Shown here: positions 12,221-12,423 of the stretch, one piece after another
Numbering within the stretch: position 1 is the stretch's first letter
Layout: every line of letters begins with the position of its first letter
Source of the DNA: Haliotis rubra
Lineage: Eukaryota
Length of the DNA stretch: 64,000 bases
NCBI RefSeq assembly: GCF_003918875.1
Contig: NW_025765324.1
Coordinates: 88,041 to 152,040 of the forward strand
Reading direction: 5' to 3'
Made by a program: the position numbers and the translations under genes
The notes under the pieces: model-generated
Told to the model about the DNA's origin: nothing
Database searches by the model: none
The model's input: only the letters and a program-made list of their open reading frames with translations

Positions 12221-12423
12221 CGAAATACAACAAAGATTCATCCAAGAAGAAGAAGAAGAAGGGAGGAGACCAAGGTTTCCGGGGCAGAGGAAGGGGAAGA
12301 GGCAGAGGAAGAGGAAGGGGTGGTGTGATGGGAGTGGGGATGGTGGGTCAGAAGAGCACCTTGTTTGACAGTGACAGCGATGAAGGTGACAGTGAGGATG
12401 AAAGCAAGAAGCCACGGAGACAA
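12221..12423 (+). CDS. TEP1: TEP1-like exon 5 (RGG-box plus acidic low-complexity insert)
   Basis: Acceptor gattttgcag|cg, donor gagacaa|gtgagt. Restores phase. Peptide AKYNKDSSKKKKKKGGDQGFRGRGRGRGRGRGRGGVMGVGMVGQKSTLFDSDSDEGDSEDESKKPRRQ. Confidence 0.65.

Follow-up and report, generated by a model that had tools for sequence, protein, structure and literature searches.

TEP1, Ro60 and the RG/RGG proteins

TEP1, also called telomerase protein component 1 or vault protein p240, ties vault RNA to vault particles and is the least understood vault component. Its role is known from the mammalian protein: it is needed for the association of vault RNA with vaults (bioRxiv 10.64898/2026.09.04.749371), its density within vaults could not be resolved (bioRxiv 10.64898/2026.05.01.722283), and two preprints of 2026 place it among the NLR-like STAND proteins and report that its TIR-like NADase is active (bioRxiv 10.64898/2026.05.01.722283; 10.64898/2026.09.04.749371). 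A sequence search found no solved structure of a TEP1 TROVE domain. In Ro60, likewise a TROVE protein, roles are ascribed to K170 and R174. The Ro60 substitution H187S abolishes binding of Y RNA (PMC11277228).

A literature search for RGG together with TROVE or TEP1 returned nothing relevant. RG/RGG repeats are known for RNA binding and as PRMT substrates. Their tri-RG class is described by the pattern RG(X0-4)RG(X0-4)RG, according to the definition of Thandapani et al. as quoted in a paper on the GAR motif, the main text of which does not mention TEP1 (PMC9957100).

A TEP1-type gene with two RG-rich exons

The gene considered here lies in a window of 64 kb, that is, the whole stretch of DNA analysed, and is probably a mollusc TEP1 orthologue of the TROVE-vWA-TIR-like NADase-STAND-WD40 type, this assignment being one part of the explanation preferred below. 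Its exon model has canonical splice sites and a single open frame, and the spliced 479-aa product matches TROVE (Pfam PF05731, E = 8.7e-105) without interruption over residues 7-452 (profile positions 27-442 of 442); this single match contains both exon 5 and exon 10. Further along the gene, DUF4062 (the TIR-like NADase) scored 25.5 bits against a cut-off of 24.7 when the exons near 23375 and 23967 were combined, and a 14-residue motif is present in these exons. The nSTAND1 score of 26.8 bits, just under the 27.1 cut-off, is that of a single exon with the P-loop GKPGSGKT and not of the whole domain. Several plus-strand exons between 40 and 52 kb matched the WD40 model with 25.8-45.4 bits, three of four exceeding the 27-bit cut-off, and weak matches to the second propeller of TEP1 were found among the WD40 exons of the window. 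The best-matching named homologues are annotated as telomerase protein component 1. An assignment to Ro60/Rsr, which are rings of about 500-540 aa with short connections, was rejected in view of the long loops (84 and 75 aa) and the downstream NADase, putative STAND and WD40 exons; Ro60 was not retrieved by a TEP1-type sequence profile at E <0.01. Neither Rfam nor ARAGORN detected a relevant RNA gene near exons 5 and 10.

Table 1. Coordinates, on the window, of the TROVE exons and of the features within exons 5 and 10
Feature	Position	Strand	Remarks
Exon 4	10597..10693	+	Encodes AFHDDGLTFGALPAALRRVMVAKFPDFDKYQL(A); tblastn with Patella, Branchiostoma and Adineta proteins; splice sites and frame
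TEP1 exon 5	12221..12423	+	203 nt; phase 1 start, phase 0 end; borders AG / GTGAGT
(AAG)6 encoding KKKKKK	12244..12261	+	TRF: period 3, 6 copies
Loop-1 RG tract, (RG)7	12280..12321	+	Nearly all AGR/GGN codons; 6/12/18-nt DNA periodicity
Acidic Ser/Asp cluster DSDSDEGDSEDE	12367..12402	+	Translation; second half of loop 1
Exon 6	13307..13443	+	Loop-1 end LSDVNYDEDSDTEEALEQKT, then conserved helix FSLKQLIRKLHIKEPVEHVMCLIGK
Exon 9	17899..17989	+	Encodes RQVINSKQFPFRFFSAYEVLTQLENDYEKN; ends in phase 1; tblastn homology, splice sites, frame
TEP1 exon 10	18920..19086	+	167 nt as given; phase 1 start; borders AG / GTCAGT
Loop-2 RG tract RGGIRGRGRGRGSRGRG	18973..19023	+	Mixed CGN/AGA and GGN codons
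WW dipeptide after RG tract	19042..19047	+	Conserved in the five molluscs with the RG tract
A9 homopolymer in exon 10	19063..19071	+	Probable 1-nt length error or polymorphism
Exon 11	19915..20095	+	Encodes (E)VAYDKNLIVRYRKALDTSVKIATVYNVQPIRGRTIIFCDIGSEM..., start of the vWA-like part; conserved acceptor CAG/T at 19915

In the frame set by the neighbouring TROVE exons, exon 5 translates as (A)KYNKDSSKKKKKKGGDQGFRGRGRGRGRGRGRGGVMGVGMVGQKSTLFDSDSDEGDSEDESKKPRRQ, in which the invariant (A)KYN is followed by K6, GGDQGF, (RG)7, a neutral GVMGVGMVG stretch, the acidic Ser/Asp cluster and KKPRRQ. The earlier note, made from the letters of the window, had reported K6-GGDQGF and the RG tracts of both exons between exons carrying recognisable TROVE segments. 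This description stands: the exons have AG/GT borders, each tract is contained in one cleanly spliced exon, both fit the tri-RG pattern several times over, and the flanking exons carry the TROVE segments quoted for exon 6 (EPVEHVMCLIGKK / YP) and exon 9 (FPFRFFSAYEVL). Only the repeat count needs amending, (RG)8 in exon 5 being in fact (RG)7 followed by G. The length of the RG run was reached in none of 200,000 composition shuffles of exon 5 and in three of 200,000 of exon 10, far beyond chance. The other frames of the purine tract of exon 5 (EEGEEAEEEEG or QRKGKRQRKRKG) were discarded, since the RG frame alone connects exon 4 with exon 6 and agrees with Patella. Insertion of a dispersed microsatellite was likewise discarded, the purine hexamer repeat being unique to exon 5 within the 64 kb.

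Exon 10, translated in the TROVE-set frame as (Q)KDIIHDAENNAMASGVTRGGIRGRGRGRGSRGRGAAGKDKWWMNRKDKKKAARHK, forms the centre of the second TROVE loop and consists of an acidic/Ala-rich stretch, RGGIRGRGRGRGSRGRG, KDKWW and a K run. Its tract follows the pattern RGG-I-(RG)4-S-(RG)2, and TRF detects only weak periodicity in the DNA. The two RG tracts cannot be considered duplicates of each other, since their codons differ completely (AGR/GGR versus CGN/GGY) and their flanks are unrelated. The final five residues, AARHK, are probably out of frame owing to the A9 run. With the sequence as given, exons 10 and 11 are in frame only if exon 11 starts at 19919, after the AG at 19917-19918, which is 4 nt further downstream than the conserved CAG acceptor. 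With A8 instead of A9 and the acceptor at 19915, the frame is open as ...KDKKKQQGTS/EVAYD and the Patella intron phase is regained; the corresponding junctions are ...KNQGTK/EVSYD in Patella, KTKE/TLYD in Solemya and PQE/TQFD in Mizuhopecten.

As a further part of the preferred explanation, exons 5 and 10 would be ordinary constitutive coding exons. Neither length is a multiple of 3 (the remainder is 2 in both cases), so that skipping of either exon shifts the frame and yields an immediate stop, 1-7 codons beyond the new 4-6 or 9-11 junction; moreover, exon 4 ends in phase 1 and can therefore join exon 5 only. The orthologous exons of Patella vulgata (L001 15523-15704, 182 nt, and L001 19985-20186, 202 nt) are not multiples of 3 either; they are at identical intron positions, the counterpart of exon 5 also in the same phase.

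The two loops across the TEP1 family

Loop 1 follows the invariant AKYN, the K of which corresponds to Ro60 K170, and precedes the LIRKLH helix encoded by exon 6, whose H is the counterpart of Ro60 H187; in Ro60 numbering it therefore falls between the equivalents of these two residues. Loop 2 connects the FPFRF helix to the RYRKALD helix, which leads into the vWA domain. All TEP1-type homologues have both loops, with a median length of 42.5 and 57 aa and a median net charge of +7 and +4 for loops 1 and 2, respectively; family-wide, the loops vary from 5 to 237 aa in length and are hypervariable in sequence. In Ro60-like short-loop homologues the same connections comprise only 4-5 and 7-11 aa. 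The RG tracts are compositional variants of two basic loops that no TEP1-type TROVE domain lacks and that are hypervariable, and the idea of RG segments inserted into TROVE thus holds relative to the short-loop homologues and fails for the TEP1 type, all members of which have long loops at these places.

A homologue search that included the RG and K runs was swamped by low complexity (63 true matches among 8000), and was repeated with these runs removed, giving 278 matches, all of them proteins of <=760 aa; full-length TEP1 sequences were taken from a separate representative-sequence search. It is also worth mentioning that in sea urchin the WD40 region, and not the loops, distinguishes the two TEP1 isoforms.

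Among 250 homologues the density of tri-RG motifs is 1.16 per 1000 aa in the two loops versus 0.049 elsewhere, an approximately 24-fold enrichment, and RG tracts reappear in the same loops in bdelloid rotifers and in several protist lineages. Tri-RG tracts in both loops were found, among the homologues sampled, only in the window protein and in Patella. The RG tract of loop 2 together with WW is common to Solemya, Mizuhopecten, Patella and Elysia, and all five molluscs having this tract keep WW(L/M) with K/R-rich residues after it. Among the sampled homologues, those of Mya, Octopus, echinoderms, amphioxus, a priapulid and vertebrates lack the tract, the sequences of Octopus, Mya and a truncated region of Elysia being automatic gene models that possibly mishandle low-complexity exons. 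The earlier description of the RG exons as lineage-specific is consequently right in that the exon-10 tract is confined to molluscs among the animals sampled and wrong if taken as species-specific, as Patella has RG in both exons and Solemya, Mizuhopecten and Elysia have the exon-10 tract.

Loop 1 is patchier. Patella has its RG tract, Solemya only a vestige of it and Mizuhopecten and Elysia none, a K-rich KTKEAKQSKKKK replacing it in the scallop Mizuhopecten between near-identical flanks. The K run of loop 1 occurs also in Mizuhopecten, Patella and further invertebrate homologues, and SD/E clusters are found at the place of the Ser/Asp cluster in Patella, Mizuhopecten, Solemya, Elysia, Lytechinus and further invertebrates. 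The spacing within this cluster appears casein-kinase-2-like. The net charge of loop 1 is +12 over its basic first 33 aa and -10 over the remainder. As the loop-1 tract is dispensable in the scallop and Elysia, and that of loop 2 is absent from Mya and Octopus, neither is essential for TEP1 function.

Proposed RNA contact and alternative explanations

AlphaFold models were consulted for two homologues, P0014 and P0001, in place of the window protein. In the protist model (pLDDT 87.9) and in that of the rotifer homologue the loop-1 RG tract follows a K-rich helix and has a pLDDT <50, and loop 2 of the protist protein forms a beta-hairpin, the tip of which is basic and Gly-rich. The fold of the homologue model matches Ro60 structures (Foldseek E about 1e-13, probability 1.0). 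Since loop 1, between the K170 and H187 equivalents, adjoins an RNA-binding determinant, an effect on RNA binding is plausible.

The explanation that appears rather probable, taken as a whole, is that the window gene is a TEP1 orthologue whose constitutive exons 5 and 10 encode local RG versions of two family-wide loops acting as RNA-binding arms. Across eukaryotes the two loops are long, evolve fast and have a net positive charge, and their basic cores would be spelled as RG repeats in this lineage. From their composition and position, the tracts are most likely disordered auxiliary RNA-binding arms, which would be flexible, of low specificity and probably substrates of arginine methylation; projecting from the ring beside the RNA-binding surface, they could add affinity or avidity for a small structured RNA partner. 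In loop 1 the conserved acidic, potentially phosphorylatable Ser/Asp half could fold back on the basic half, tuning the binding. Also belonging to this explanation is the proposal that the loop-2 RG tract with its WW is an old, selected feature of molluscs, and the loop-1 tract a labile product of slippage and A/G substitution in a purine-only K/R/G coding tract. Although the codons differ, the RG-WW order and position are kept in bivalves (protobranch and pteriomorph) and in gastropods (patellogastropod and heterobranch), and the mixed CGN/AGA codons and almost complete lack of DNA periodicity show that the pattern is maintained at the protein level.

Neutral low-complexity drift is possible, though it is rather doubtful that it accounts for both tracts. 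The loops would then need only length, disorder and positive charge, or perhaps nothing at all, and the RG spelling would be incidental, left behind by replication slippage and A/G substitutions where the coding sequence is rich in purines, and would not affect RNA binding specifically. The purine-only codons and hexamer periodicity of the loop-1 tract and the scallop replacement between near-identical flanks are as drift would leave them. The hypervariable sequences and wide length range of the loops across the family and the lack of the loop-2 tract in Mya and Octopus are also in line with drift, as is the purine content of exons 5 and 10, which is 75% and 69%, respectively, against 48-60% in the other TROVE exons; purine loading would also suit a constraint acting on the RNA, for instance through splicing enhancers rich in purines. 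Two observations speak against drift: the constancy of the loop-2 RG-WW arrangement across four bivalve and gastropod groups, and the tri-RG enrichment in just these loops in distant eukaryotes, which speaks for an advantage that recurs and not for drift alone.

A role of the RG tracts mainly in protein-protein contacts or localisation, rather than in RNA contact, seems improbable. Methyl-arginine docking of Tudor proteins, nuclear or nucleolar targeting together with the K runs, and condensates in the vault lumen are examples of what such a role could be; they are general properties of RG/RGG proteins (PMC9957100), K6 and K3 runs do adjoin the tracts, and the unresolved TEP1 density in vaults suggests a flexible attachment (bioRxiv 10.64898/2026.05.01.722283). 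Nothing specific favours this role, and the bracketing of loop 1 by the equivalents of Ro60 K170 and H187, near the RNA-binding surface, favours RNA contact instead.

That exons 5 and 10 were recently exonised and inserted into TROVE as alternatively included cassettes, as had been proposed from the letters of the window, is scarcely credible, for although each RG tract is one exon with clean splice sites and the loop-1 tract varies between related molluscs, skipping breaks the frame and rules out cassette use in a productive mRNA, exon 5 starts with the invariant AKYN and exon 10 ends with the conserved WW/basic segment, Patella has both exons at matching intron positions, exonisation is contradicted by the orthology between bivalves and gastropods, homologous loops occur in every TEP1-type protein, and the splice sites are strong, e.g., with a 20-nt pyrimidine tract before exon 10.

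Taken alone, what was found in the window belongs to the ordinary features of a known gene and involves no new gene, element or mechanism. A broader proposal, which we put forward tentatively, is that RG/RGG arose repeatedly in the same two TEP1 loops in molluscs, bdelloid rotifers and unrelated protists, that the loop-2 RG-WW has been kept since the bivalve-gastropod ancestor, and that these events mark RNA-gripping arms. If so, the loops would extend the Ro60 K170-H187 region and the basic Gly-rich loop that precedes the vWA domain, they would provide the first testable map of the grip of TEP1 on vault RNA, for which no structure exists, and molluscs with both loops RG-rich would be a natural test system. 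Should the loops be RNA-contacting arms and RG a recurrent strengthening of them, the comparative pattern would single out the segments in which to examine RNA selection by TEP1.

Comparison with known systems

The window gene shares with TEP1 of vertebrates and other animals the order TROVE, vWA-like part, DUF4062, putative STAND NTPase and WD40, as well as two long basic loops at the same places of TROVE; it differs in that the loops of vertebrates, echinoderms, amphioxus, arthropods and a priapulid are K/R/P-rich without RG repeats. Ro60 and Rsr (PDB 1yvp, 2i91, 2nvo, 9nen) have the ring fold in common with it, as judged from the homologue model. The anchors are also alike, AKY(N/K) corresponding to T-K170-Y-K of Ro60 and the LxRLxH helix to that with H187, and the Ro60 equivalent of loop 2, KKGHGNRGKLRW, is likewise basic and Gly-rich and is followed by W. 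In contrast, the connections of Xenopus Ro60 are QRNGWS and about 20 aa where the window protein has its two long loops, and Ro60 is without NADase, STAND and WD40 modules.

With RG/RGG (GAR) proteins of the fibrillarin, nucleolin, hnRNP U and FMRP class the window protein shares the tri-RG pattern, and the loop-1 RG tract of two of its homologues is predicted to be disordered; the tracts of the window protein are, however, internal loops of a folded RNA-binding ring and not terminal tails or linkers. The short protist TEP1-like/p80-like TROVE-vWA proteins (about 600-700 aa; Acanthamoeba, Blepharisma, Gocevia, Apiculatamorpha) also have the two loops, many with RG/RGG in loop 2, e.g., RGGRGGRRGRGRGR and GRGGRGGARGGRGRGGRGGRGG, and some in loop 1, e.g., RGGRGRGRGG. 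They differ in that loop 2 often forms a conserved hairpin of 53 aa, that they have neither the WW motif nor the acidic Ser/Asp half of loop 1, and that, among the homologues sampled, none is RG-rich in both loops as the window protein is.

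Exon Content and Gene Identity

In this eukaryotic DNA of about 40% GC, the exons near the arginine-glycine (RG) segments were placed by tblastn with homologues, and splice sites were then chosen to give one open frame. The spliced 479-aa product yields one unbroken Pfam TROVE match (residues 7-452, E = 8.7e-105) that includes exons 5 and 10, and the earlier note was right in locating the RG segments within this module. Farther downstream, plus-strand exons give a DUF4062 match above the cut-off and encode the STAND P-loop motif GKPGSGKT; there are also numerous WD40 repeats, and matches to the TEP1 propeller are weak. 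Telomerase protein component 1 is the annotation of the top homologues, and taken together these sequence features mark the gene as orthologous to TEP1. Across the TROVE region, identity to the bivalve Solemya velum is 60.6%, and across its second half identity to Mizuhopecten is 63.5%. These identities, with loop-1 flanks that nearly match those of the scallop, were taken to point to a mollusc as the source, probably a bivalve.

TROVE exons of TEP1 and other features, in window coordinates
Feature	Position	Strand	Evidence or description
tRNA-like Rfam match	3341-3411		single, 37 bits; upstream of TEP1
Dispersed short repeat	~4071, 14749, 20964, 21983, 46716		several intronic; translation ...FYAAFSNIPAISRRGTPEMGFTHCTHVGNRTRVFGVTSQRFNH
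Exon 2	9796-9930	+	tblastn, splice sites, open frame
Exon 3	10088-10249	+	tblastn, splice sites, open frame
Exon 4	10597-10693	+	tblastn, splice sites, open frame
Exon 5	12221-12423	+	203 nt; AG / GTGAGT borders; starts phase 1, ends phase 0
Exon 6	13307-13443	+	tblastn, splice sites, open frame
G-rich 24-nt minisatellite	13482-13993		~20 copies, intron 6
Exon 7	14359-14516	+	tblastn, splice sites, open frame
Exon 8	15024-15133	+	tblastn, splice sites, open frame
Exon 9	17899-17989	+	tblastn, splice sites, open frame
Exon 10	18920-19086	+	167 nt; AG / GTCAGT borders; starts phase 1
(CCCTA) microsatellite	19633-19763		exon 10-11 intron; ~26 copies; TAGGG as reverse complement
Exon 11	19919-20095	+	start set by frame-keeping AG at 19917-19918
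GC-rich block	26000-30000		GC 52-54% vs ~40% elsewhere
135/280-nt tandem repeat	26937-27498		intronic, in GC-rich block
48-nt and 64-nt minisatellites	45467-46368 and 49003-50248		large; WD40-region introns; long spurious open frames result

The strong GC skew at 12-14 kb (0.38) is due to the G-rich minisatellite, and the GC-rich block probably arose by insertion of a transposon or satellite. The dispersed repeat together with the tRNA-like match suggests a tRNA-derived SINE family. The (CCCTA) array, a telomere-repeat-like pentamer in a telomerase-associated gene, is probably coincidental.

Exon 5 translates as (A)KYNKDSSKKKKKKGGDQGF(RG)7GVMGVGMVGQKSTLFDSDSDEGDSEDESKKPRRQ, and the translation of exon 10 begins (Q)KDIIHDAENNAMASGVTRGGIRGRGRGRGSRGRGAAGKDKWWMNRKDKKK. 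The repeat in exon 5, previously read as (RG)8, is present as (RG)7 followed by G, and both tracts satisfy the tri-RG definition (PMC9957100), which bears out their description as RGG/RG boxes. The RG runs are not explained by chance from exon composition: among 200,000 peptide shuffles per exon, the observed run length was reached by none for exon 5 and by three for exon 10. Loop 1, the variable basic TROVE loop encoded by exon 5, is divided in charge, with +12 over the 33 aa of its basic half and -10 in the acidic Ser/Asp half that follows.

Two Variable Loops of the TEP1 Family

In an alignment with about 250 homologues, every TEP1-type TROVE domain has two long variable loops at exactly the places of the RG tracts. 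Loop 1 extends from the invariant AKYN motif to the F(T/S)LKQLIRxxH helix (median 42.5 aa, range 5-237, median net charge +7), and loop 2, whose centre exon 10 encodes, from FPFRFxSAY to (R/K)Y(R/K)xALD (median 57 aa, median net charge +4). Both loops are present throughout the family. The earlier note had regarded the RG segments as inserted exons, consistent with exonisation or cassette use. They are indeed long relative to three Ro60-like short-loop homologues of the same alignment (4-5 residues at loop 1, 7-11 at loop 2), but long loops are shared by the TEP1-type family, and since AKYN opens exon 5 and the terminal part of exon 10 is a WW/basic segment kept in molluscs, neither exon is a pure insert. 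Splicing exon 4 to exon 6 brings a stop one codon later, and exon 9 to exon 11 a stop in 3-7 codons with either acceptor; a productive cassette isoform is therefore excluded for both exons, which appear constitutive, and a cassette or exonised nature is very improbable.

In one group of TEP1 homologues (P0140, P0143, P0147, P0148, and P0161) loop 1 reaches 218-237 aa; the expansion is conserved and not of low complexity (…IRVSGVGIKLKxL…), which suggests a whole folded domain inserted at the loop-1 site.

Distribution of the RG Tracts

The Patella vulgata locus (OW026350.2, here L001) has the same exons at identical intron positions. Its exon-5 equivalent (182 nt, L001 15523-15704, phase as in the window) encodes AKYNKDSSKNKNKKEKQGSFRGRGRGRGGGRGRGRGGRGG...SDSDSDSDDEEK, and its exon-10 equivalent (202 nt, L001 19985-20186) encodes ...MATRGRGLAARGRGRGAGRGRKGGRAKPKGTGFEWWLKKKAKNQGTK. 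The lineage-specificity that had been proposed for the exons is thus not borne out; what stands is that, among the animals tabulated, the loop-2 RG tract is found only in molluscs, the vertebrate-like homologue P0169 aside.

RG tracts in full-length representative proteins, taken from the 4066 that an exhaustive profile search gave at E ≤ 0.001
Source	Loop-1 RG tract	Loop-2 RG tract + WW
Window	yes	yes
Patella vulgata	yes	yes
Solemya velum	vestige (ARGRGA)	yes
Mizuhopecten yessoensis	no, KTKEAKQSKKKK in place	yes
Elysia marginata	no	yes
Mya arenaria	loop not recovered (gene model without AKYN anchor)	no
Octopus	no	no
Sea urchin, crinoid, priapulid	no	no
Amphioxus	no	no; loop 2 of 9 aa in gene model
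Sharks, teleosts, tetrapods	no	no; exception GRGRSRFRG in P0169

The loop-2 tract is conserved across molluscs, and of the homologues sampled, only Patella shares with the window an RG-rich state of both loops. RG tracts are recurrently enriched in these two loops: beyond molluscs, loop 1 has tri-RG in the rotifer Adineta and in three sequences that are protist or unnamed, and loop 2 has it in 13 or more such sequences, Apiculatamorpha and Gocevia being two of the sources. Where the anchors were usable, it is found in loop 1 of 5/214 homologues and loop 2 of 15/172, at 1.16 per 1000 aa within the loops vs 0.049 outside. Two other loop-1 features, the K run and the acidic Ser/Asp cluster, are widespread among invertebrates.

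In the public Patella annotation TEP1 is cut into two gene models (L001 10001-15910 and 16277-25910+; products of 427 aa, labelled 'uncharacterized protein', and of 2213 aa), the break falling exactly after the RG/acidic exon 5. The low-complexity exons of TEP1 seem to confuse gene predictors, and the apparent absences of RG tracts in Octopus, Mya, and Elysia should therefore be read with caution.

Origin of the Tracts and the Exon 10 Junction

The loop-1 tract adjoins (AAG)6, and because its codons are almost all AGR/GGR, its periodicity is 6/12/18 nt, and exon 5 is 75% purine, it fits recent slippage and A/G substitution in a purine-only K/R/G tract; the K-rich replacement in scallop (Mizuhopecten), where the loop-1 flanks are nearly the same as in the window, is also consistent with this. 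The loop-2 tract has mixed codons (CGC/CGA/CGT/AGA with GGN) and almost no DNA periodicity, and Patella encodes the same protein pattern with other codons; the tract is therefore maintained at the protein level. Coding-strand purine loading of exons 5 and 10 (75% and 69% in the window, 74% and 64% in Patella) exceeds that of the remaining TROVE exons (48-60%) and could also come from purine-rich splicing-enhancer constraints.

In the sequence as it stands, the end of exon 10 is in phase 0, and the exon joins exon 11 in frame only through the AG at 19917-19918, part of a tandem acceptor, CAG/TGAG/G (19912-19919). The acceptor CAG/T at 19915 is strong and homologous to TAG/G of Patella, and its use gives an in-frame TGA. 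With one A fewer in the A9 run (19063-19071), the Patella intron phase is regained and the junction reads ...WWMNRKDKKKQQGTS/EVAYD, beside ...KNQGTK/EVSYD in Patella, ...KTKE/TLYD in Solemya, and ...PQE/TQFD in Mizuhopecten; all four, the A8 window included, have Glu three residues ahead of YD/FD. A homopolymer length error or polymorphism is the probable cause, a genuinely shifted exon 11 acceptor being less likely. The RG tract is unaffected; the last five residues of exon 10, as first read, change if the run is corrected to A8.

Possible Function and Comparison with Ro60

In composition, the RG tracts are a variant of disordered loops that were already known, in a protein of the known TEP1 family. 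They are read, with some preference, as flexible, low-specificity RNA-binding arms that would boost affinity for the small RNA partner of TEP1, and they would be likely PRMT substrates; the acidic half of loop 1 could compete with RNA, tunably by phosphorylation. A literature search found no papers tying RGG motifs to TROVE or TEP1. Neutral compositional drift, in which charge alone would matter, is rather unlikely, and a role of the tracts in protein interaction or localisation is improbable. The finding is of value mainly for comparison, since RG tracts that recur in these two loops mark where TEP1 may contact RNA, and such sites are timely given that TEP1 is now viewed as an NLR-like NADase inside vaults (bioRxiv 10.64898/2026.05.01.722283; 10.64898/2026.09.04.749371).

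A sequence search found no solved structure of a TEP1 TROVE domain, and AlphaFold models of two homologues were used. In that of the protist P0014 (pLDDT 87.9) a K-rich helix after AKYN projects from the ring and is followed by an RG segment of pLDDT < 50; the rotifer P0001 (TROVE core pLDDT > 90) likewise has a K-rich helix and then a disordered RG segment. The loop-1 RG tract is predicted to be disordered in these homologues. Loop 2 of P0014 forms a beta-hairpin whose tip, RGKKGRQMG, is basic and Gly-rich.

By Foldseek, the P0014 model can be superposed on structures of Ro60 (E ~1e-13). In Ro60, the K170A/R174A mutations affect the binding of misfolded RNA. By residue-level alignment to Xenopus Ro60 (1yvp), K170 corresponds to the K of AKYN, residues 173-178 (QRNGWS) stand where TEP1-type proteins have loop 1, and H187 corresponds to the H of LIRKLH in exon 6; the loop-2 equivalent, KKGHGNRGKLRW, is likewise basic and Gly-rich, followed by W. 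Y RNA binding is lost in Ro60 H187S (review PMC11277228), and loop 1, close to the H187-equivalent position, thus emerges next to a site of the TROVE ring known to determine RNA binding.
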